DNA of 64,000 bases from Methanobacteriota archaeon (lineage in GTDB: Archaea; Thermoplasmatota; DTKX01; VGTL01): contig VGTL01000002.1 of assembly GCA_016874675.1 (NCBI GenBank), positions 9,021-73,020 on the forward strand, in the 5' to 3' direction. The first letter of the stretch is position 1, and each line of letters opens with the position of its first letter. The notes under the pieces are model-generated. The model had not been told where the DNA came from and did no database searches. It saw only the letters and a list, made by a program, of their open reading frames with translations. This document shows positions 5,241 through 61,431 of this stretch, in pieces. The position numbers and the translations under genes were made by a program.

Positions 5241-5262
5241 TGAAGGGGCAAGGGGCAAGGGT
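5241..5262 (+). repeat. GGGGCAA heptad mini-array (G-quadruplex-capable) in uvrA-uvrC junction
   Basis: aaggggcaaggggcaaggg lies between the uvrA stop (TAA 5234..5236) and the uvrC ATG 5264. Same heptad unit as the dispersed repeat family. Doubles as a purine-rich RBS. Confidence 0.6.
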
Positions 5263-5263
5263 T

Positions 5264-7123
5264 ATGACGGGCAGGAGGGACCGCAGGGAAGGACCGCAAA
5301 AGCCCCCGCAGGGGTTCGATGTGAGGGCACGGGCCCGGGAACTGCCCGAGCTGCCCGGCGTCTACCAGTTCCTCGACGCTTCGGGAAAGGTCCTTTACAT
5401 CGGAAAAGCGCGGAACCTGCGGAAGCGGATAGACTCCTACATACGGCCGCACTCGTGGCTCATCCCCGCGATGCTCGAAAGGGCGCGCTCGCTCGATTAT
5501 ACCGTTACGAAGACGGACCGCGAATCCCTCATCCTGGAGGCGTCGATGGTCCGCCACCACAAGCCGAGGTACAACGTGAAGCTCAAGGACGACAAGAGGT
5601 TCCCGTACCTCAAGCTCACGAAGGAGGGGTTCCCCCGCCTGATCCATGTCCGCCGGACCGCCGACGACGGGGCGACCTACTTCGGGCCTTTCACCTTCGG
5701 CCCGATAAACCGGACGATGAGGTTCGTGCGCAGGCTCTTCGGGCTGCGGCCCTGCGCCAGCCTGCTCCCGCGGGGCTGCATCTACGGGGACATGGGGAAC
5801 TGCCTGGCGCCGTGCCGGGGGAAATGCACCCAGAAGGAGTACGCGGAGGCGGTGGGGCAGGCGGCCAGATACCTCTCGGGGGAGCACCGCGCCCTCCTGA
5901 CCGGCCTCGAAGAACGGATGGAGGAGCTCTCCGAGCGGCAGGAATACGAGAAGGCTGCGGCGATCCGGGACCAGATAAGGACCGTATCCAGGCTCGCGGC
6001 GCGGCAGAGGGTGGATTTCCTCGACCCGGCCGACCGCGACGCGATCGTCGTGAGGAGGGCCGGGGCGGAGAGGGCGCTTGCGCTCCACTACTCGATAAGG
6101 GGCGGCATCGTGGTGGCGAAGAAGCACTTCAGCCTCGACGCGCCCGAAGGGTTGGGGCCCGGCGATGTCCTCGAGGGCTTCCTGACGCAGTACTACGGCA
6201 ATGCCTCCCCGCCACCGGAGATAATGATGCCCGCGGCCGTCCCGGGGCGCGCCCTGGTCGAGGACTGGCTCTCCTCGGTGGCGGGGCGCAGGGTGCGCCT
6301 GCTCCTGCCGAAGAAGGGCCCCCGGAGGAGATTGCTCGGGCTTATGGAATCGGACCTCGCCGCGCTGGCGGCCGCGATGGAGGGCGGGAAGCCGAGGGAC
6401 GGAGCCTACGACGAGGCGGCGGCCGAGCTGCAGAAGTGGCTCTGCCTTCCCCGTGTGCCGGAGAGCATCGAGGCCTACGACATATCGACGATCCAGGGGA
6501 CGAGCTCGGTCGGGGCGAAGGTGCGCTTCGAGAACGGCCTGCCGGCGAAGAGCGGGTACCGGAGGTTCAGGATCAAGAGCGTCGCCGGGCAGGACGATTT
6601 CGCCATGATGGGCGAGGTCCTCTCACGGAGGATGGGTCATATGGACGACGACCCCTTGCCGGACCTGATGTTGATCGATGGAGGCAAGGGGCAGCTAGGG
6701 GCGGCGCTAGGAGCGATGAAGAGGGCCGGAGCGAAGGGCGAGGGCGTGAAGGGAGGGGACGCGAATGTGGCGGGCGCCCGGCCGGCCCTGGCCGCGCTTG
6801 CGAAAAGGGAGGAGGAGGTGTTCGTTCCGGGAGAGGAGGCGCCCCTGCCGATTCCCCCCGGGTCGAAGGCGCGGCTCCTGCTCCAGAGGGTCCGGGACGA
6901 GGCGCACCGCTTTGCGGTCGGCTACCACCGCAAGCTCCGATCGAGGGGGCAGACCGGTTCGGCGCTGGACAGGGTCGAGGGGCTGGGCGCGAAGAAGGCG
7001 GCGGCGCTGCTCCGGCGGTTCTCGTCCGTGGCGGGAATACGGGCGGCGTCCGAGGACGAGCTGAGGCAGGTGGAGGGGATCGGGCCGAAACTGGCCAGGC
7101 AGGTCAAGGAAACCCTCGGATAA
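5264..7123 (+). CDS. uvrC: excinuclease ABC subunit C (UvrC)
   Basis: GIY-YIG N-terminal nuclease domain (LPELPGVYQFLDASGKVLYIGKARNLRKRIDSY), UvrB-interacting region, and C-terminal RNaseH-like/HhH domain (GLGAKKAAALLRRFSSVAGIRAASEDEL). ORF track starts at TTG 5240; ATG 5264 is preferred. Confidence 0.9.
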   Translation: MTGRRDRREGPQKPPQGFDVRARARELPELPGVYQFLDASGKVLYIGKARNLRKRIDSYIRPHSWLIPAMLERARSLDYTVTKTDRESLILEASMVRHHKPRYNVKLKDDKRFPYLKLTKEGFPRLIHVRRTADDGATYFGPFTFGPINRTMRFVRRLFGLRPCASLLPRGCIYGDMGNCLAPCRGKCTQKEYAEAVGQAARYLSGEHRALLTGLEERMEELSERQEYEKAAAIRDQIRTVSRLAARQRVDFLDPADRDAIVVRRAGAERALALHYSIRGGIVVAKKHFSLDAPEGLGPGDVLEGFLTQYYGNASPPPEIMMPAAVPGRALVEDWLSSVAGRRVRLLLPKKGPRRRLLGLMESDLAALAAAMEGGKPRDGAYDEAAAELQKWLCLPRVPESIEAYDISTIQGTSSVGAKVRFENGLPAKSGYRRFRIKSVAGQDDFAMMGEVLSRRMGHMDDDPLPDLMLIDGGKGQLGAALGAMKRAGAKGEGVKGGDANVAGARPALAALAKREEEVFVPGEEAPLPIPPGSKARLLLQRVRDEAHRFAVGYHRKLRSRGQTGSALDRVEGLGAKKAAALLRRFSSVAGIRAASEDELRQVEGIGPKLARQVKETLG

Positions 7124-7898: not shown

Positions 7899-8654
7899 GT
7901 GTCCAAGCGCTGGTTCCGGGAGAAAAAGCGCGAGCACTTCTACAAGCTAGCCAAGAAGGAGCACTACCGCTCCCGCGCGGCCTACAAGCTCAAGCAGATA
8001 CAGGGCCGGTTCAACGTGATTCACTATGATTTCCTGGTCGTCGACCTGGGCGCATCCCCGGGCGGCTGGTCCCAGGTGGCGGCCGGGATAGCCGGCCGCA
8101 ACGGGAAGGTGGTCGCCATCGACCGGGCACGCATGAAGCCCGTGGAGGACGTCTTGGTCCTGCGCGGGGACATGACCAAGGACGAGACCGTGGCCGCGCT
8201 GTTCCGGGCCCTCGGGGGCCGGAAGGCGGACGTGGTGCTTTCGGACATGTCCCCGGACATCTCCGGGAACTACTCCATCGACCACGCCCGGTCAATCGAG
8301 CTTTGCGGGACCGCCCTGGCCTTCGCCCGCCGGGCCCTTCGCCCCGGGGGCAACCTCGTGGTCAAGGCCTTCCAGGGAGACCTCTTCGGCCGCTTCCTGG
8401 CCGCGGTCCGCCAAGACTTCAGAAACGTCCACGCCTTCCACCCGGAGGCCTCCCGCCCCTCGAGCTCGGAGATATACGTTGTCGCCAAGGGATACGGCAT
8501 GGAGGGCGATGGGGGGAAGGCGCGGGGCGCAGGGCGCAGGGCGCAAGGGAAGGAGCAAGGCGCAGGGCGCAAGGCGCAAGGGAAGGAGCAAGGGGCAAGG
8601 GGCAAGGGGCAAGGGATGGACGGAGGATTTCGGGAAAGGGCTGAGGAGGAATAG
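7899..8654 (+). CDS. rlmE: 23S rRNA (uridine-2-prime-O)-methyltransferase RlmE/FtsJ, with repeat-encoded low-complexity C-terminal tail
   Basis: N-terminus SKRWFREKKREHFYKLAKKEHYRSRAAYKL and SAM-binding VVDLGASPGGWSQV with K-D-K-E residues are typical FtsJ. GTG start. The last ~50 aa (GKARGAGRRAQGKEQGAGRKAQGKEQGARGKGQG...) are encoded by the heptad array. Confidence 0.85.
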   Translation: MSKRWFREKKREHFYKLAKKEHYRSRAAYKLKQIQGRFNVIHYDFLVVDLGASPGGWSQVAAGIAGRNGKVVAIDRARMKPVEDVLVLRGDMTKDETVAALFRALGGRKADVVLSDMSPDISGNYSIDHARSIELCGTALAFARRALRPGGNLVVKAFQGDLFGRFLAAVRQDFRNVHAFHPEASRPSSSEIYVVAKGYGMEGDGGKARGAGRRAQGKEQGAGRKAQGKEQGARGKGQGMDGGFRERAEEE

Positions 8655-8745
8655 GCCCCCGCTTCCCCCCTTGCTCCTTGCACCTTGACCCTTGCGCCTC
8701 CAGCCTTGCGCCTTGCGCCTTGCGCCTTGCGCCTTGATATTGCCC
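8515..8745 (+). repeat. heptad-array hairpin repeat (G-rich arm 8515..8627, C-rich complementary arm 8665..8745)
   Basis: Tandem GCGCAGG / GCGCAAG / GGGGCAA heptads, followed after a ~40-nt spacer by the complementary CCTTGCG / CCTTGCC heptads. Can form a very long imperfect hairpin. The G-rich arm contains a (G4 CAA)x3 GGG G-quadruplex motif at 8592..8615. Confidence 0.85.
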
Positions 8746-10242: not shown

Positions 10243-10333
10243 GCGGCGGGCCCCCGGGCCCGCCGGCACGGACGGCACCGGCCCGGCCCGGCCGGGCGGG
10301 CGGCCGTCCCGAGACCGCAAGGGGGAACGGAAG

Positions 10334-13204: not shown

Positions 13205-13328
13205 GGTCAAAGGCAGCAAGGCAGAAGGGCAGGAAGGGAGAAAGGCAGAAAGGGAGAACGGGGGGTCGACCGTCAGTCCCTTTCTGCCTTCCTGCCTTCC
13301 TGCCTTTGCCCGTTGCCCCTTGCCCCCC
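13205..13328 (+). repeat. heptad-array hairpin repeat between secY and DUF106 gene
   Basis: aaaggcagcaaggcagaagggcaggaagggagaaaggcagaaagggag, spacer, then complement ccctttctgccttcctgccttcctgcctttgccc. Contains the 21-mer ggcaggaagggagaaaggcag, also present at 29217 and (reverse complement) 28462. Confidence 0.85.
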
Positions 13329-25244: not shown

Positions 25245-25345
25245 CCTTGCACCCTCCTTCCTCTTCTCCCCTTCCCGTCCTTCCCTCTCTCCCCTTTCCT
25301 TTCTTCCTTCTTCCCCGCACCCTGCGCCCTGCGCCCCGCACCCCG
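25245..25345 (+). repeat. C-rich heptad array (single arm) between rps19 stop and rpl22 start
   Basis: ccttcctcttctccccttcc...ccccgcaccctgcgccctgcgccccgcaccccgcgcgc. On the mRNA (minus) strand this is a purine-rich GCGCAGG/GAAGGAA leader ending in GGAGGGTGCAAGG ATG (the rpl22 RBS). Confidence 0.75.
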
Positions 25346-25350
25346 CGCGC

Positions 25351-29214: not shown

Positions 29215-29275
29215 AAGGCAGGAAGGGAGAAAGGCAGCAAGGCAGCAAGGGGCGGTGGCGCAGGGCGCAAGCGAC
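29215..29275 (+). repeat. purine-rich heptad array adjacent to L3 operon promoter
   Basis: aagaaggcaggaagggagaaaggcagcaaggcagcaaggggcggtggcgcagggcgcaagcg, including the shared 21-mer at 29217..29237. Confidence 0.8.
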
Positions 29276-29746: not shown

Positions 29747-30196
29747 ATGGACATCCCGCTCCTTTTCGACGAGGCAGGGAAGCTGTTCCTTTACGCGCAG
29801 GTATTCAGCCCGGGAATCCCCCGGCCGAAACCGCTCAGGATGCACCTCGACACCGGGGCAAGCTCGACGACCCTTTCCCTCAAGGACGCCGAGGAGCTCG
29901 GCGTGGATGCCGGGAGCCTTCGCCCGAGCGGAAGAACGAACTACGGCTACGGCGGCAGGATGGATGTGCGAAGGCTCCCGGAGGCGTGCCTGGTCTTTCT
30001 CACCGTGGACAGGACCGCGTTCACCGTGCCGTTGGACAGTGTCCAGGTCAACTGCACATTCTCCGCGGTCAGGGGAAAAGGCAAGGACCTGGTGGTCTAC
30101 GGGATGCCGTCCGTTCTCGGCGTGGACCTCCTTCTCAAAGCCGGCATGGGCCTGAGCGCGAGCTGGAAGGACAGGACGGCGCGTCTTTCGGCCTGA
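29747..30196 (+). CDS. retropepsin-like (clan AA) aspartic protease
   Basis: Active-site motif HLDTGASSTTLS (D-T-G-A) in the N-terminal third, second hydrophobic flap-like segment (LVVYGMPSVLGVDLL). 149 aa, about right for a single-lobe retropepsin-like fold that dimerises. Confidence 0.7.
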   Translation: MDIPLLFDEAGKLFLYAQVFSPGIPRPKPLRMHLDTGASSTTLSLKDAEELGVDAGSLRPSGRTNYGYGGRMDVRRLPEACLVFLTVDRTAFTVPLDSVQVNCTFSAVRGKGKDLVVYGMPSVLGVDLLLKAGMGLSASWKDRTARLSA

Positions 30197-30289: not shown

Positions 30290-30515
30290 CCCCTGCACCC
30301 TGCACCCTGAGTTTCCCTTGCGCCTTGCGCCTTCCTAACCCCGCACTGAAGTGCGGGGCTTCAACGCTTTCCTATGTTGACCGACCCCGGACTCAAGTCC
30401 GGGGTATCTAGCTTTCAACCTTGCGCCTTGCGCCTTGCGCCCTGCGCCTTCCCATCGCGCCTTGCGCCGTCGTCCCCTGCTCCCTTGCTGCCTTGCTGCC
30501 TTGCTCCCTTGCTCC
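30290..30515 (+). repeat. composite repeat module between convergent genes: heptad arrays + two near-identical GC hairpins + atctagctttca box
   Basis: cccctgcaccctgcaccctg...cccttgcgccttgcgcc; hairpin ccccgcac-tgaa-gtgcgggg (30339..30358); hairpin ccccggac-tcaa-gtccgggg (30385..30404); atctagctttca (30406..30417); then accttgcgccttgcgccttgcgccctgcgcc...cccttgctgccttgctgccttgctccc. Confidence 0.85.
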
Positions 30516-30521
30516 CCTCGT

Positions 30522-30992
30522 CTATTCCTTCACCATATACACTTTCTTCATCCTGTCGCCCATCTGTATCCGGTCGACGACCTCGATGCCCTCGAGGACC
30601 TGGCCGAAGACGGTGTGCTTGCCGTCGAGGTGCGGCGTCGGGACGTGGCAGATGAAGAACTGGCACGAGCCGGTGTCGCGCCCCTTGTGGGCCATGGACA
30701 GCGAGCCGCGCTGGTGGCGCCGGCGGTTGTGGTCCACCTCGCACTTTATCGTGTAGCCGGCGTCGCCCGTGCCGTTGCCCTTGGGGTCCCCGCCCTGGAT
30801 CATGAAGCCCGGGATGACGCGGTGGAACTTGATACCGTTGTAGAAGCCCTTCTTGACGAGCTTCAGGAAGTTGTCCACCGTGCCGGGAGCGTCGTTCTTG
30901 TAGAGCTCCAAAACGATCTTGCCCTTGTCCGTCTCCATCGCCACCACTGGAAGGTTCCCCTCTGCCGGCATCATGACCACCTTCGAGCCCAT
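30522..30992 (-). CDS. peptidyl-prolyl cis-trans isomerase, cyclophilin type
   Basis: [25 protein letters not shown] and [20 protein letters not shown] are cyclophilin signatures. True start probably internal (MPAEG.. or METDKG..). Confidence 0.88.
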
Positions 30993-33671: not shown

Positions 33672-33850
33672 AAGAAGGCACAGGGCGCAAGGCGCAGGGC
33701 GCAGGGCTTGAGGGTAAAGGCGCAAGGGGCAAGGGGCAAGGTGAAGAACCCTTTCCTCCCTTGCGCCTTCACCCTTGCGCCTTTACCCTCAAGCCCTGCG
33801 CCCTGCGCCTTGCGCCTTGCGCCTTCCCTTGCGCCCTGCGCCTTGCGCCC
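33672..33850 (+). repeat. heptad-array hairpin repeat in divergent promoter region (surface protein / thrS)
   Basis: ggcacagggcgcaaggcgcagggcgcagggcttgagggtaaaggcgcaaggggcaaggggcaaggtg; short spacer; complementary ccttgcgccttcacccttgcgcctttaccctcaagccctgcgccctgcgccttgcgccttgcgcc. A long near-perfect palindrome. Confidence 0.85.
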
Positions 33851-46022: not shown

Positions 46023-46153
46023 GAAAGGCAGAAAGGCAGGAAGGCAGCAAGGCAGCAAGGGGGAACGGAACGAACCGTCGTCCCCTTGTTGCCCTGCTGC
46101 CTTTCTGCCTTGCTGCCTCCCTTGCTGCCTTGCTGCCTTTCTCCCTTGCTGCC
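46023..46153 (+). repeat. heptad-array hairpin repeat between CDF gene start and tRNA-Ile
   Basis: gaaaggcagaaaggcaggaaggcagcaaggcagcaaggggg; spacer; ccccttgttgccctgctgcctttctgccttgctgcctcccttgctgccttgctgcctttctcccttgctgcc. Confidence 0.85.
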
Positions 46154-46211: not shown

Positions 46212-46286
46212 GGGCCCATAGCTTAGACTGGCTGGAGCGCCCGGCTGATAACCGGGCGGTCGAGAGTTCAAATCTCTCTGGGCCCA
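46212..46286 (+). tRNA. tRNA-Ile (anticodon GAT)
   Basis: 75-nt cloverleaf: acceptor GGGCCCA/TGGGCCC, anticodon stem CCCGG/CCGGG with loop CTGATAA, T-arm GAGAG-TTCAAAT-CTCTC, discriminator A. Confidence 0.85.
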
Positions 46287-46469
46287 TGCATCCCCGAAGG
46301 GGATGCAGGCGCCTCAGCGCACAGAGATTTCAAGATTTTGATGAAACTTTTAATTGCGAACAAAGGAAGGAATTAAAAGTTTCGTTCAAATCTCTCTGGG
46401 CCCATGCATCCCCGAAGGGGATGCAGGCGCCTCAGCGCACAGAGATTTCAAGATTTTGATGAAACTTTT
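46267..46469 (+). repeat. 85-bp tandem direct repeat (2 copies, 118-bp period) including the last 20 nt of tRNA-Ile; att-site-like
   Basis: Copy 1 at 46267..46351 and copy 2 at 46385..46469 are identical: ttcaaatctctctgggcccatgcatccccgaaggggatgcaggcgcctcagcgcacagagatttcaagattttgatgaaactttt. Each contains the 9-bp-stem hairpin gcatcccc-gaa-ggggatgc. Confidence 0.85.
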
Positions 46470-49528: not shown

Positions 49529-49547
49529 GGCGTTCCCCCGGTGCCAT

Positions 49548-49642
49548 TGCGGTTGCGGGGATTCGAACCCCGGTTTGAAGCTGGTCCCGGCGCGCGGTGG
49601 CGCCATGGGAAGCTCCAGTCCTAACCACTAGACTACAACCGC
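49548..49642 (-). tRNA. tRNA-Gly (anticodon CCC) with a ~23-nt canonical-position intron
   Basis: Reverse complement: GCGGTTG TA GTCT AGTGGTTA GGAC T GGAGC TTCCCA [TGGCGCCACCGCGCGCCGGGACC] A GCTTC AAAC CGGGG TTCGAAT CCCCG CAACCGC A. Intron follows anticodon-loop position 37. Confidence 0.65.
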
Positions 49643-49662
49643 ACGGAGCTGGGGATATCTGG

Positions 49663-49735
49663 CGTTGGGGTTTGGGGTTCGGGGCATGCGAGGCAGGGGT
49701 CGGGGTACGGGGTGCGGGGTGCTGGGAAGGGAGGA
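49663..49735 (+). repeat. G-tract array (telomere-like TTTGGGG/GGGGTNC units), strong G-quadruplex motif
   Basis: ggcgttggggtttggggttcggggcatgcgaggcaggggtcggggtacggggtgcggggtgctggg. Seven G4 tracts within 65 nt. Lies between tRNA-Gly and the small ORF. Confidence 0.8.
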
Positions 49736-51499: not shown

Positions 51500-51605
51500 C
51501 GATTGGTTCGGGGGACATGCTGGCGCAGCTGGTCAAGGGGACGTGTTGGTCCTATTGGTTCGGGGGACGTGTTGTTGATGTGGGTCAGGGGGACGGAGGG
51601 GGGCG
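51500..51605 (+). repeat. ~52-bp tandem duplication with G5 tracts at convergent gene junction
   Basis: gattggttcgggggacatgctgg...ggtcaaggggacgtgttgg / ctattggttcgggggacgtgttg...gggtcagggggacggagggggg. Four copies of gggggacRtg-like cores. Confidence 0.7.
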
Positions 51606-53522
51606 GCAGCCGGGAGACCAGAAATCCGCGACGTCCCTTGCGGGGTCCGATGATTCGCGAAGGTCCGGGAGGTATTCCCTGAACTGGACGGCGCGGCGGT
51701 CCAGGATGACGGCCACGCCGCGGTCGCGCTCGCTGCGGATGAGCCTGCCGATGGTCTGCAGGAGGCGCCGGGCGGTCGGGGCCCTCACGGCGTAGTCCCA
51801 GCCCTTCCCGAACCGTATGTCGTAGTAGTACTGGAGCGCCTTCTGGCGGGCCGTCGGCTTCGGGTAGGGGATGCCCACGATGACGGCGACGTCCAGCTCC
51901 CGGTCGGGGAAGTCGATGCCCTCGCTGACCCGGCCCCCGATCACGGAGAGCAGTACCGCGCCCTCCTCGCCCCTCCGGCCCTCCTCCTTGAAGCTGTCCA
52001 CGGTCTCGAGCAGGTCCTGCTGGCTGGCGCCCCGCTCCTCGACGAATATCCGGCGGCCGGCGGACCGCCCCAGCCCCATCGCCAGGGAGCGCTCCAAAAG
52101 GTCGAAGCTCGGGAAGAACACCGCGGTGTTGCGGGAGGTGGCGCGGCAGATCTCCCCGGCCTTGCCAAGTATCCCGGAGAACATCTCCTCGTCGGTGAGC
52201 CGGTCCTCGTACTTCATCGAGACCGACGGGTCGCAGAGCACGAGGCGGTTCTCCGGGGGGAAGATGCCGGGGAAGGCGCGTAAAAGCGTCCGGTCGCCCA
52301 ACCCCAGGGAGTCCCGGTACTCCTCGAGGGGCGAGAGCGTCCCGGACATGTGCAGGCCCGAGTGGCAGCGGCCCAGGGGTTCGGAGGCGAGGCCGGGGTC
52401 CATGCAGTAGGCCTCGAGGCGGGGGCTCTCCCCGTCCTTCACGAGCTTGACATAGGCGTCGCTCTCCAGGCCCATCCAGAGCGCCAGGAAGGAGCCCACG
52501 GAGTGGAGGTGGGACCGCGGCACGCGGCCCCCCTTGCGCCGGTTCTCCCTTATCGCCTCGCCGTGGGCGGCCAGGTTCGCCACGGCCGACTCGAGCCGGT
52601 TGGAGGTCCAGCGGAAGGAGTACATGAGCTCCTCCTCCACCGCGCCCGGCGGCACCATGCCGTCCTCGTCGATGAGGTACTCGTCGCGCAGCTGGAGGAC
52701 TATCTGCTCCATCCGGGCGCAGAGATCGCTGACCCGGACCTCGTCTTGGACGTACAGCCCTCCCAGCTCCGTCGCCTCCTGCGAGGCGAGCCTGAGGGTC
52801 TGCAGGCCCAGCGAGAGCGACTTGAGCGAGCGGGCGAACTCGGGCAGGTTGTGCGCCTCGTCCACCACCACCACGAGGTCCTCGAGCGGGCAGTTCATCC
52901 AGTCGAGGAGCCGGGCGCGTATGAACGGGCTGAGAAAGTAGACGTAGGGCGCGACCACCACCGCGGCGGAGCGCGCGAGGAGCTTGGCGGCCTCATATGG
53001 GCAGAGCCCCGCCTCCCGGCAGTGCCGGGCCATCTCCTCCACCGTGGGCAGCGTGCGCTCGCACCAGGACTGGAGCTCTCCGGTCCCGGCGGCCCGGAGC
53101 TCCTCGAAGAACGGGCAGCCGCCCGGCTCGCGACGGCGGGAGGTCTCCTTCCGGTCGTTGCAGAGCACCGAGAGCTCCTCGGGGGAGGCCGTCCTCCACT
53201 CCCGCTCGGTCGCGAGCAGGAGGCAGGTGCTGTGGCGCCCCTGGATGCCCGTGCCCAGCACGCGGGAGCGGCCCGAGATGGCCCGAAGCTCCCGGAACAC
53301 CTGCACCTGCTGGGAGTTGGTCCGGGTGAGATACAGCAGCCGCTTGCCGTGCCGGGCGGCACCGAAGAGCGCCGGCACGAGGGCGCAGACCGTCTTGCCC
53401 GTGCCGGAGCCCGCCTCGGCGAGGGCGCTCGTCCCCGACCCCACCGCACCGGCGAAGAGCCCCATCAGCTCGAGCTGGACGGGGCGGGGCTCGTAGGGGA
53501 ACATCCCGAGGTGGGAATCCAT
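51585..53522 (-). CDS. xpd: ATP-dependent DNA helicase, XPD/Rad3 (ERCC2) family with Fe-S domain
   Basis: Motif I EAGSGTGKT, motif II VVVDEAHNL (DEAH), four Fe-S cysteines in the Arch/FeS insertion (HSTC...C..C..C), C-terminal HD2 motifs (GIDFPDRELDVAVIVGIPYP, RLIRSERDRGVAVILD). Confidence 0.88.
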   Translation of the reverse strand: MDSHLGMFPYEPRPVQLELMGLFAGAVGSGTSALAEAGSGTGKTVCALVPALFGAARHGKRLLYLTRTNSQQVQVFRELRAISGRSRVLGTGIQGRHSTCLLLATEREWRTASPEELSVLCNDRKETSRRREPGGCPFFEELRAAGTGELQSWCERTLPTVEEMARHCREAGLCPYEAAKLLARSAAVVVAPYVYFLSPFIRARLLDWMNCPLEDLVVVVDEAHNLPEFARSLKSLSLGLQTLRLASQEATELGGLYVQDEVRVSDLCARMEQIVLQLRDEYLIDEDGMVPPGAVEEELMYSFRWTSNRLESAVANLAAHGEAIRENRRKGGRVPRSHLHSVGSFLALWMGLESDAYVKLVKDGESPRLEAYCMDPGLASEPLGRCHSGLHMSGTLSPLEEYRDSLGLGDRTLLRAFPGIFPPENRLVLCDPSVSMKYEDRLTDEEMFSGILGKAGEICRATSRNTAVFFPSFDLLERSLAMGLGRSAGRRIFVEERGASQQDLLETVDSFKEEGRRGEEGAVLLSVIGGRVSEGIDFPDRELDVAVIVGIPYPKPTARQKALQYYYDIRFGKGWDYAVRAPTARRLLQTIGRLIRSERDRGVAVILDRRAVQFREYLPDLRESSDPARDVADFWSPGCRPPPSP

Positions 53523-55271: not shown

Positions 55272-55360
55272 GGGGAAGGGGAGCGGGCAGCGGGCAGCGG
55301 GCAGCGGGGAGCGGTGACGGAACGAATCCGTCCGTCCACCGCTCCCCGCTGCCCCGCTGG
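55272..55360 (+). repeat. GGGCAGC heptad-array hairpin (15-bp perfect stem cagcggggagcggtg / caccgctccccgctg)
   Basis: ggggaaggggagcgggcagcgggcagcgggcagcggggagcggtgacggaacgaatccgtccgtccaccgctccccgctgccccgctgg. Confidence 0.85.
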
Positions 55361-55497: not shown

Positions 55498-55630
55498 GGC
55501 AGGGTGCAGGGTGCAGGGTGCGGGGTGCGGGGTGCGGGGTAACGTACGGTGTCCATCTTGAACCCGGTACCCCATGCCCCGAGATATCCCCCGCACCCTG
55601 CACCCTGCACCCTGCACCCCGCACCCTGCG
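55498..55630 (+). repeat. GCAGGGT/GCGGGGT heptad-array hairpin with G-quadruplex motif
   Basis: (gcagggt)x3(gcggggt)x3; 50-nt spacer; complement (cccgcac)(cctgcac)x3 cccgcaccctgcgg. Confidence 0.85.
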
Positions 55631-55703: not shown

Positions 55704-56705
55704 ATGAACCTTGGTCGGCGGCTTGTGATCGCCATCGGTGGAAATGCAATCCTGCAAGAGGGCCAGAGGGGCACCGCCGAGGAGCAACGGGCCAACCTGG
55801 AGGTCGCCTGCGAGTCCCTCGCCGCGCTCATCCGCCCCGGCGTCAATGTCGTCCTCACGCACGGGAACGGCCCCCAGGTGGGGAACATTCTCGTCCAGAA
55901 CGAGGCCGCCAGGGCGCAGGTGCCGGCGCTCCCGCTCGATGTCTGCGGGGCCCAGTCCCAGGGCTCCCTGGGCTATCTGATCCAGCAGGTCCTGTCCGGA
56001 GTCCTCCGGAGCCGCAACATCCGGCGCGATGTGATGGCGCTCGTCACCCAGACCGTGGTGTCCCCCGACGACCCGGCGTTCCTCTCCCCGAGCAAGCCCA
56101 TCGGCCCATATTACAGGGAGCCCGAGGCCCGCGCTCTCTCGCAGGAGAAGGGATGGAAGCTCGTCGAGGTCGGCAAGCGCCACTGGCGGAGGGTGGTGGC
56201 CTCGCCCGACCCGCTGGAGATCGTGGAGAAGGGGATGATCCGGAAGCTCATGCGCCAGGGGACGGTCGTCATAGCGGCAGGCGGCGGGGGCATCCCGGTG
56301 GTGCGGCGCGACGGGAGGCTCGCCGGCGTGGAGGCGGTTGTCGACAAGGACCTGGCCTCGGCCACCCTGGCGCGCGATGTCGGGGCCGACGCGATGATCC
56401 TGCTCACTGACATAGAGAAGGTGGCCATCAACTTCCGCACCCCGGAGGAGCGGTTCCTGGACCGGATGACCGTGGAGGAGGCGGGGCGATATCTCAAGGC
56501 GGGCCACTTTCCGGCGGGGAGCATGGGACCGAAGATAGAGGCGGCGATCAGGTTCCTGGCCCCCAGGCCGGAGCCCACGCTGGACTCGTTTGGCGCGCCG
56601 GGAGCCCGGTTCTCCCGCCCGCAGCTCAAGGTCATCATAGCCTCCCTGAACGCCGCCGAGCGGGCAGCCCGCGGGAAGACCGGCACCACCATCACCCCGG
56701 ACTGA
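55704..56705 (+). CDS. arcC: carbamate kinase
   Basis: MNLGRRLVIAIGGNAI start, HGNGPQVG, and AAGGGGIPV are carbamate kinase signatures. ATG 55704; the ORF track extension runs through the repeat and tRNA. Confidence 0.85.
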   Translation: MNLGRRLVIAIGGNAILQEGQRGTAEEQRANLEVACESLAALIRPGVNVVLTHGNGPQVGNILVQNEAARAQVPALPLDVCGAQSQGSLGYLIQQVLSGVLRSRNIRRDVMALVTQTVVSPDDPAFLSPSKPIGPYYREPEARALSQEKGWKLVEVGKRHWRRVVASPDPLEIVEKGMIRKLMRQGTVVIAAGGGGIPVVRRDGRLAGVEAVVDKDLASATLARDVGADAMILLTDIEKVAINFRTPEERFLDRMTVEEAGRYLKAGHFPAGSMGPKIEAAIRFLAPRPEPTLDSFGAPGARFSRPQLKVIIASLNAAERAARGKTGTTITPD

Positions 56706-56736
56706 TGTCCGGGGCTCTACGCTATGCTGTGGTGAA

Positions 56737-56900
56737 ACGACCCGGAATGAGAGCCGGGGCATCTAGCTTTCAGGCGGACCGCACCCTGCCCGCTGCCCGC
56801 TGCCCGCTGCCTGCAGCTCCCTCACCCTTCCATCACCTCACCCCCCTGCATCCCGCGCCCTGCACCTTGTAGCCTCGCAACCCTGCCCCTTGACCCTTGA
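56737..56900 (+). repeat. second copy of composite module (hairpin + atctagctttca + C-rich heptad arrays)
   Basis: cgacccggaatgagagccggggcatctagctttca (56737..56772) is ~80% identical to 30381..30417. Followed by ggcggaccgcaccctgcccgctgcccgctgcccgctgcc ... ccctgcaccttgtagcctcgcaaccctgccccttgacccttgacccttgaccc. Confidence 0.8.
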
Positions 56901-56965
56901 CCCTTGACCCGTTCCCCGATAGTATAAATATCCCCTGCCCTCTATACGGGTACGAAGGAGACCGG

Positions 56966-57313
56966 ATGCCGGGCGAAGAGGAGGCCTACGAATCCGATGC
57001 GGAGCCGCCGGAGGGAGGCGAGGAGTTCAGGGTCCGCCTGCCCCGCCGCAACGAGGGCGAACTCTTCGGGATCGCCGACCAGCTCCTCGGGGCCTCGCGC
57101 ATAAAGGTGATGTGCGCCGACGGAAAGACCCGGATGGCCCGCATCCCGGGGAAGATGAAGAAGCGGATGTGGATTCGGGAGGGGGACCTGGTCATCATCC
57201 GGCCCTGGAAGTTCCAGGATGAAAAATCCGACGTCCTGTGGCGCTACACGAAGACGCAGGCGAGCTACCTGAGCCGGCGCAAGCTCCTCCCCAAGGAGAT
57301 CGACATATTCTGA
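56966..57313 (+). CDS. translation initiation factor 1A (aIF-1A/eIF1A)
   Basis: S1-like OB fold (RIKVMCADGKTRMARIPGKMKKRMWIREGDLVIIRPWKFQDEKSDVLWRY). ATG 56966 with RBS gaaggag. Acidic N-terminal extension. Confidence 0.85.
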   Translation: MPGEEEAYESDAEPPEGGEEFRVRLPRRNEGELFGIADQLLGASRIKVMCADGKTRMARIPGKMKKRMWIREGDLVIIRPWKFQDEKSDVLWRYTKTQASYLSRRKLLPKEIDIF

Positions 57314-58756: not shown

Positions 58757-58860
58757 AGGCAGCAGGCAACTGGCAGCGGGCAGTGGTGGGACGACGGACA
58801 ATCGTCCCCCGCTGCCCGCTGCCTCTGCCCCGCTGCCCCCCCGCCGCTCCCCGCTGCCCC
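58757..58860 (+). repeat. GGCAGCG heptad-array hairpin between convergent genes
   Basis: aaaggcagcaggcaactggcagcgggcagtggtgggacgacggacaatcgtcccccgctgcccgctgcctctgccccgctgcc. Confidence 0.8.
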
Positions 58861-61403: not shown

Positions 61404-61431
61404 TGCGGAACCCGGTGCCCGACGGCACCGG
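61404..61431 (+). terminator. GC hairpin (10-bp stem aaccggtgcc / ggcaccggtt) after subtilase gene
   Basis: Perfect inverted repeat with loop cgac, 27 nt after the stop. No T-tract, so terminator function is speculative. Confidence 0.25.

Follow-up and report, generated by a model that had tools for sequence, protein, structure and literature searches.

Two intergenic regions of the DNA analysed here, a 64-kb stretch of contig VGTL01000002.1 (64,000 nucleotides; hereafter the window), each carry a copy of an element that consists of two hairpins, a linker and a terminal box. The element belongs to a recurrent intergenic two-hairpin family, which is restricted to an uncultured high-GC lineage of the Thermoplasmata and resembles no Rfam family above threshold. 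The window itself is archaeal, with about 66% GC, a ribosomal-protein operon, aIF-1A and tRNAs. Proteins identical to those of the window were found in JGI lake metagenomes and in a metagenome-assembled genome (MAG) that carries the label 'Euryarchaeota archaeon' (MBM4247942), and the closest named relatives of its cyclophilin come from Thermoplasmata / Thermoplasmatota MAGs (77-80% identity).

Anatomy and covariation of the element

Alignment of the two loci defined a repeat unit of ~79 nt, made up of a first hairpin (H1), a 25-nt linker, a second hairpin (H2) and the tail ATCTAGCTTTCA. The parts of both copies and the adjoining features are located as follows:

30291..30333, + strand: C-rich heptads on the 5' side of locus 1 (CCCTGCA, CCTTGCG)
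30339-30417, + strand: whole element, locus 1
30339..30358, + strand: H1 of locus 1, CCCCGCAC-TGAA-GTGCGGGG, 8 bp with a tetraloop
30359..30383, + strand: linker of locus 1, CTTCAACGCTTTCCTATGTTGACCG, conserved; the next A opens H2
30384..30405, + strand: H2 of locus 1, ACCCCGGAC-TCAA-GTCCGGGGT, 9 bp with a tetraloop
30406..30417, + strand: tail box of locus 1, ATCTAGCTTTCA; conservation ends sharply after ...TTTCA
30419..30516, + strand: C-rich arrays of 7/8-nt units on the 3' side (CCTTGCG, TCCCTTGC), between the element and the cyclophilin stop
30522-30992, - strand: cyclophilin gene, stop codon at 30522
56695-56772, + strand: whole element, locus 2
56695..56714, + strand: H1 of locus 2, CCCCGGAC-TGAT-GTCCGGGG; the loop holds the TGA stop of the AA_kinase-family gene (56703-56705)
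56715..56739, + strand: linker of locus 2, CTCTACGCTATGCTGTGGTGAAACG
56741..56758, + strand: degenerate H2 of locus 2, CCCGG-AATGAGAG-CCGGG, 5 bp only
56761..56772, + strand: tail box of locus 2, ATCTAGCTTTCA
56777..56921, + strand: C-rich arrays of locus 2 (CTGCCCG, CCCTTGA, degenerate units), reaching the aIF-1A TATA box
56918-56932 (approximate): TATA box of the aIF-1A gene, with its ATG at 56966

At locus 1 the element is flanked by two gene 3' ends, that of a retropepsin-like gene (+, ending at 30196) and that of the cyclophilin gene (-). Locus 2 begins within the final codons of the AA_kinase-family gene, and the arrays and the TATA box of aIF-1A lie downstream of it.

The initial annotation of the window had described the repeat as a unit of 36 nt. 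The look-alike segments are real, as cgaccccggactcaagtccggggtatctagctttca and cgacccggaatgagagccggggcatctagctttca match at 29 of 36 positions (81%, one gap), although they start one base later than had been given (30382-30417 instead of 30381; 56738-56772 instead of 56737). The actual unit is the ~79-nt one, since H1 and the linker are also repeated at both loci. The upstream hairpin noticed at locus 1 was found at 30339-30358, but its counterpart at locus 2 (56695-56714) had been missed. The C-rich arrays on the 3' side of both copies were recovered by Tandem Repeats Finder (30419-30516; 56786-56811 and 56887-56910; 7-8-nt units).

A scan for perfect hairpins returned three at these loci (30339-30358, 30384-30405 and 56695-56714). 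H2 of locus 2 is eroded to 5 bp with an 8-nt loop, compared to 9 bp with a tetraloop at locus 1, and the fold z-score is -1.8 at locus 2 versus -5.5 at locus 1. Compensatory stem changes had been placed inside the 36-nt segment, where there are none; this hairpin has decayed at locus 2, and true compensation between the loci sits in H1 (GCAC/GTGC versus GGAC/GTCC). The tail 12-mer occurs exactly twice in the window, with no further match at up to two mismatches, and a covariance model of the element, which recovered both window copies, found only these two in the 64 kb with filters off.

Further copies were searched for in one metagenome pattern scan with an 18-nt pattern derived from the tail (CGGGGNATCTAGCTTTCA). 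It returned 36 metagenome stretches, in 29 of which the homology to the window copies extends over another ~60 nt and takes in H1, the linker and the 5' arm of H2, while the remaining seven are chance matches in low-GC or otherwise unrelated contexts. The 29 true copies stem from lake, sediment and wetland samples, have 59-68% GC and were assigned by clustering of the flanking proteins to about 18 distinct loci besides the two of the window. The scan is not exhaustive, as it missed the six JGI contigs in which the window's own copies are known to be present.

These 29 copies in other samples, which share homology with the upstream hairpin, refute a purely local duplication or a chance resemblance. 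The same holds for a short coding segment. The two window copies do share 11 codons with conservative-looking substitutions (PGLKSGVSSFQ versus PGMRAGASSFQ), but a 1-nt indel between the linker subtypes shifts the frame, the open reading frames continue into the heptad arrays, and stops are present in all three reverse-strand frames of the consensus and in most copies on the described strand, by which we mean the + strand as listed above.

The family consensus is CA-CCCCGGAC-TNAA-GTCCGGGG-CTTGGACGCTTTCCTATGGTGAAACG-ACCCCGGAC-TGAA-GTCCGGGGT-ATCTAGCTTTCA, with CTTGGACGCTTTCCTATGGTGAAACG as the linker, whose subtypes differ by the indel mentioned above (11 nt versus 12 nt). Both boundaries are sharp: the information content is at background right before 'CA' plus H1 and right after TTTCA. 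An A at position -1 is nearly invariant, and a TTGCA-like sequence precedes about half of the copies; TTGCA is also a heptad unit.

Stem covariation was tested with 22 copies and 500 shuffles, and the 3' partners were also slid by 1-3 columns. Standard pairs made up 98.4% of the stem cells, and five stem pairs change on both sides, in 15 cells; neither value was reached by any of the 500 shuffles, and pairing of the slid partners was at most 56%. Six distinct perfect stems were observed (GGAC/GTCC, GCAC/GTGC, GGAA/TTCC, GGAT/ATCC, GTAC/GTAC and CCTC.../...GAGG). RNAalifold predicted the two hairpins only, on either strand. The initial annotation had proposed a structured RNA with a conserved box and a covarying hairpin, and a conserved box with covarying stems is supported, with copies at about 20 distinct loci from several environments, whereas neither an independent small RNA gene nor a canonical terminator is supported. 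The described strand shows no G-U pair, and its only three C/A-type stem mismatches become G-U wobbles on the opposite one, which gives a weak hint that the opposite strand would be the relevant one if the element acts as RNA.

Several other structural readings were tried and rejected. A third helix between the TGAAA of the linker and the TTTCA of the tail would have five pairs in most copies (one of them G-U in the GAGACGA subtype) and only three in GTTGACCGA, and it is absent from the RNAalifold predictions for both strands. Readings as a C/D box, H/ACA or K-turn RNA were discarded, as the box-like letters occupy freely varying loop positions: by the criteria for C/D box small RNAs (C, RUGAUGA; D, CUGA) no 5' C box is present, with only UGGUGA in the linker, and CUGA is seen in some loops only, at a position that varies freely (CUAA, CUCA, CUUA). 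A promoter of its own lacks any conserved signal upstream of the element on either strand. A CRISPR array does not fit the one to three hairpins per site and the conserved linker in place of unique spacers, and archaeal origin (ORB) repeats do not fit either, with neither an AT-rich unwinding region nor a cdc6 gene nearby.

Across the whole window, Rfam 15 reported only tRNAs above threshold; permissive scans of both loci gave Acido-Lenti-1 as the best match, at 22 bits against a threshold of 37 and over H1 only. BLAST against plasmids and phages yielded no match to the element. In viral contigs the tail pattern had no match, and the bare hairpin CCCCGGAC-TNAA-GTCCGGGG had 14, none of which carries the element (at most 27 bits); the hairpin alone is therefore generic. 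A scan of species-representative genomes gave a single match, by chance, to a MAG of the Bryobacteraceae; the set thus does not include the source genome. A literature search found no description of the element or of the arrays.

Gene context, retention and variation

To describe the gene context, we used a crude gene caller based on third-position GC, checked by clustering, which resolved both neighbours at 16 loci. The element lies within a tandem pair running as the reverse complement of the described strand at seven of them and within a tandem pair in the sense of the described strand at two; five loci are convergent and two divergent. With seven tandem loci against two, the strand described in the initial annotation is probably not the usual transcript strand. 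A gene 3' end adjoins the element at 14 of the 16 loci, and at 12 the TTTCA side points towards a gene 3' end. At several tandem loci only 3-40 nt separate the element from the next start codon, and an AT-rich TATA box was not seen between the two in the flanks that were read, so that co-transcription of the tandem neighbours across the element is likely. An example is the gene for propionyl-CoA carboxylase beta followed by that for methylmalonyl-CoA mutase (L018/L023/L034). The described strand is always the C-rich strand of the neighbouring arrays, and GC skew is negative over the 100 nt downstream in 19 of 23 copies.

Unrelated GC-rich hairpins of 8-9 bp were also observed right after stop codons, in the window (10244-10265, 61412-61431) as well as in L044 (900-921, 2847-2866), which suggests that 3' hairpins are in general use in this clade.

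The copy that follows the cyclophilin stop codon is kept in those relatives whose cyclophilin falls into the same 90%-identity cluster, with covariance-model scores of 107 bits in L052/L053 and 97-104 bits in L054-L059 (overall 96.8-107.2), while the surrounding arrays and the next gene differ from the window in L052-L059. In L054 there is no array on the gene side, and the tail is shortened to TATCTAGCTA and adjoins the stop codon. In the distant relatives L060-L065 (cyclophilin 77-81% identical) the element is absent, with a best score of 12 bits. One genome, represented by Ga0233425_10000249, has the copy at the cyclophilin locus (L052) and lacks the one at the AA_kinase locus (L049), where a spacer of G-array, centre and C-array takes its place; its AA_kinase gene shares 75% amino-acid and 74% nucleotide identity with that of the window. 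The L052 copy preserves both stems by compensatory changes.

Retention together with compensatory change argues for a function, whereas presence and absence together with the sharing of subtypes across loci argues for copying or mobility. Insertion ends at locus 2 could not be defined from the relative that lacks the element there, as the whole spacer is unalignable and the flanking gene only 75% identical. The overlap with the stop codon was likewise discarded as a proof of insertion: synonymous differences are too common, affecting 104 of 250 same-residue codons between the two genomes. The covariance model detected no extra independent copy in about 240 kb flanking the ascertained copies, and a soft estimate from these figures is that a genome holds between about one and a few tens of copies.

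Besides the two-hairpin form, we found copies with one hairpin (L021, L033), whose orthologs carry two or more, and copies with three (L035, L013). Structured insertions of 60-65 nt occupy the H1 loop in L023 and L028, and insertions of about 46-60 nt, which contain two other hairpins and have 6-10-nt flanking duplications, interrupt the 5' arm of H2 in L013, L023, L029 and L030. The hairpins thus behave as recombination or insertion points, and hairpin plus tail is the minimal retained unit.

These genomes also contain other recurrent small hairpin repeats (GGAGGACC-nnnn-GGTCCTCC, AGGCGAC-ttcg-GTCGCCT and GAAGAGCGAGCAGRGCGAGCTCTTC), of which a part is nested in the element with short flanking duplications. 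They lie at L013 398-531, L023 2790-2980, L028 232-377, L029 1151-1298 and L030 2974-3103, and in the flanks of L012, L014 and L025.

Possible roles of the element

From the sequences and their gene context we infer that the element is transcribed, on which strand it would function and that it would have an effect as RNA. We tentatively regard it as a REP/BOX-like stem-loop in 3' untranslated regions (UTRs) or between cistrons, which would stabilise or end transcripts. The element would be transcribed within mRNAs, which would in most cases contain the reverse complement of the described strand, and its very stable hairpins may act in cis as a transcript-boundary element by blocking 3'-to-5' decay and/or by pausing or stopping RNA polymerase. 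The outcome would be differential expression across the boundary, as with bacterial REP or BOX elements. The invariant single-stranded linker and tail would presumably be recognised by a protein. Copies may be gained and lost by recombination or a transposition-like process, and hairpin number could shift by unequal recombination between near-identical hairpins.

What is known of 3'-end formation of transcripts in archaea mostly concerns oligo-T signals and the factor aCPSF1/FttA, and the signal commonly found at archaeal terminators is a run of five T. In the 64 kb, five or more consecutive T occur only 11 times on the + strand and 14 times on the - strand, and just 2 of 56 genes have such a run in the 80 nt downstream. 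Oligo-T terminators of the canonical archaeal type thus seem to be nearly absent, which leaves room for another end signal. The element shares with intrinsic or oligo-T terminators a GC-rich hairpin after stop codons and a tail with some T (TATCTAGCTTTCA). In contrast to these, it has no five-T run, a scan for the terminator consensus gave no site on either strand at either locus, and where the next start codon follows after 3-40 nt it cannot be a strong terminator.

Of the known systems, the element would work most like REP/BIME or BOX elements. REP/BIME sequences are short GC-rich extragenic palindromes with a GTAG or CGTC tag, which are located mostly downstream of coding regions, form clusters, are probably transcribed and have been linked to mRNA stabilisation, termination and possible mobility (PMC3733652, PMC12306157). 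Each hairpin of our element is likewise an extragenic palindrome, of 20-22 nt (the REP criterion being 20-40 nt and imperfect; here they are perfect), with an 8-9 bp stem, a 4-5-nt loop and a position mostly after coding regions. It differs, however, in the absence of the defining GTAG or CGTC tag (PMC3733652), the flanks being CA/CT for H1 and CGA/TATC for H2, in the head-to-tail order of the hairpins, an arrangement surveyed as rare or absent for REP dimers, and in its long conserved non-palindromic linker and tail. Moreover, there are few copies per genome as sampled here, compared to tens to hundreds for REP, no RAYT gene was seen among the immediate neighbours of any copy, and the host is archaeal. 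With BOX elements of Streptococcus pneumoniae and Correia/NEMIS elements it has in common a variable internal unit (here one to three hairpins) combined with a fixed terminal module, the intergenic position, a predicted stable RNA structure and possible co-transcription with the neighbours. It has no sequence similarity to them, much smaller units and no terminal inverted repeats, and it belongs to a different domain of life.

A number of observations weigh against a role in stabilising or ending transcripts. The bias in orientation, at about 12 of 16, is modest and depends on a crude third-position-GC gene caller, and two copies (L039, L044) lie in divergent promoter regions, where a role at 3' ends makes little sense. 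The missing T-tract means that the element is not a canonical terminator, and a pure stability element needs no invariant linker and tail, so that both are left unexplained. The argument on the strand depends on three mismatches. Finally, the window locus 1 copy is only one base away from the non-orthologous L015 copy of another sample (arbitrary flanks excluded), while it shares only about 82% with its own ortholog L052, which accords better with copying or mobility than with a static function.

The main rival, possible if doubtful, is an explanation as mobile DNA, selfish and non-autonomous, of the MITE, REP or PATE type, in which an IS200/IS605- or RAYT-kind tyrosine HUH transposase would read the hairpins as single-stranded DNA, the ...TTTCA tail would be the cleaved right end and transcript effects would be a by-product. 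The two alike, same-direction subterminal hairpins, the missing terminal inverted repeats and a sharp right end about a dozen bases past a hairpin resemble the ends of IS200/IS605 elements and PATEs; here the end lies 13 nt past the subterminal hairpin, and both boundaries are sharp. In many copies the TGAAA 5' of H2 is complementary to the terminal TTTCA, although this complementarity fails in the GTTGACCGA subtype, and the perfect hairpins differ from those of IS200/IS605 and PATEs. On the described strand every change in the stems leaves a Watson-Crick pair and none gives G-T, one genome has a copy at one locus and none at another, and the near-identical copies of L015 and window locus 1 come from non-orthologous loci of different samples. 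Other hairpin mini-elements lie within the element with 6-10-nt duplications (L013, L023, L028, L029, L030), many contigs end within a few hundred bases of a copy, as assemblies do at repeats, and about half of the copies are preceded by the TTGCA-like sequence. The latter may, however, be a mere heptad unit, and no conserved target tetranucleotide was established. Neither a transposase gene beside any copy nor a tnpA/tnpB partner was found, the neighbours being housekeeping genes. Copy number appears low, no copy was found in viral, plasmid and phage collections, a clean empty site is missing, and the cyclophilin-locus copy has been kept across genomes in which nucleotide identity of other genes is down to about 74%. 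Since REPs are regarded as functional in transcripts and also as mobile, a transcript-stabilising role and mobility are not mutually exclusive.

An independent multi-copy small non-coding RNA gene with its own promoter, acting in trans, would account for conserved sequence and structure with defined ends, and in three copies (L024, L039, L044) H1 is indeed preceded, at 16-25 nt, by an AT-rich stretch that resembles a TATA box. These stretches are, however, correctly placed for divergent neighbour genes, whereas most copies have no TATA-like sequence on either side and only background information content upstream of both ends. One window copy even starts within coding sequence, others stand 3-40 nt from the next start codon, hairpin number varies from one to three with large insertions tolerated in the H1 loop and the H2 arm, and Rfam gives no match above threshold, all of which makes such a gene improbable. 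Equally improbable is a double-stranded DNA site with two palindromic operators 45-47 bp apart and a box, which would serve a dimeric regulator, chromatin or insulator protein together with the arrays. In its favour, the palindromes are perfect and free of wobbles on the described strand, polarity is fixed with respect to the arrays, whose ends lie at TATA boxes, and some copies stand upstream of promoters (window locus 2, L029, L039, L044). But the differing stems (GGAC, GCAC, GTAC, GGAT, GGAA) are all self-complementary, which a hairpin explains and a single base-reading protein does not; most copies are not beside a promoter, and the neighbour genes share no functional theme.

How transcripts are ended or insulated in high-GC archaea with few T-runs is poorly understood, and the element with its polarised arrays provides a concrete, conserved candidate in a clade of uncultured Thermoplasmata of lakes, sediments and wetlands. 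If it were mobile DNA instead, it would be a rare archaeal example of a REP-like or hairpin-transposon-like family. Either way, the element qualifies as a candidate for a new RNA family and can usefully serve to trace the clade in metagenomes.

Intergenic arrays and other features of the window

Arrays of 7-9-nt units (among them AAGGCGC, AAGGCAG, GCAGGGT and GGGCAGC) were detected in almost every intergenic region of the window, with a count of at least 12 regions. Apart from the two loci described above, they cover:

5243-5298: array region
8517-8736: array region
13209-13326: array region
25255-25348: array region
29215-29270: array region
33675-33849: array region
46023-46153: array region
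49665-49726: array region
55278-55359: array region
55499-55629: array region
58757-58859: array region

A G-rich array lies left of a C-rich array on the + strand in all seven regions that contain both, and a stricter detector returned four G-to-C and no C-to-G transitions. By this polarity, the sense strand is G-rich after stop codons and C-rich just upstream of TATA boxes; sense-strand C-rich arrays precede about ten TATA boxes and end 10-25 nt before them. The two arms often form long inverted repeats (33674-33741 with 33759-33826, 68 nt, 93% complementary), and unit sequences vary between loci while the arms within one locus match. It is conceivable, though unlikely, that the arrays, as long hairpins, G-quadruplexes or R-loops, form together with the element a lineage-specific gene-boundary system that replaces oligo-T terminators and insulates promoters. 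If so, arrays and element would represent a new archaeal architecture of termination and insulation.

The centres between G- and C-arrays share a small hairpin motif, GACGGAACGAAyCCGTC or GGGACGAcggacaaTCGTCCC (46061-46083, 55315-55338, 58784-58807 and 13259-13278), which may be a second conserved centre element. The open reading frame at 7899-8654 (+) has no stop before the G-rich array and reads through it, which would append about 50 low-complexity residues unless the true stop is elsewhere. Between 29271 and 30290, a pair of short genes on the + strand (105 aa, and 149 aa with retropepsin-like Asp_protease_2) is enclosed by complementary arrays, the G-array 29215-29270 and the C-array 30457-30510 (54 nt, 81% complementary). 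In relatives this position is taken by a Zn-ribbon gene, in some cases together with an AAA-lid gene, and it looks like a swapped cassette.

Three further observations concern other parts of the window. An exact 86-nt direct repeat (46266-46351 and 46384-46469, spaced 118 nt), which includes a hairpin and AT-rich sequence, starts in the final 21 nt of tRNA-Ile(GAT) (46212-46286) and looks like the duplicated attachment sites of a tRNA-integrating element. A 97-nt tRNA at 49547-49643 (-), which was left unassigned by ARAGORN (anticodon 'ccca') and called as tRNA by Rfam, probably contains an intron. Where a 468-aa gene and an XPD-like helicase gene converge, the spacer contains, at 51502-51606, three to four copies of a 26-nt unit with GGGGGACG.

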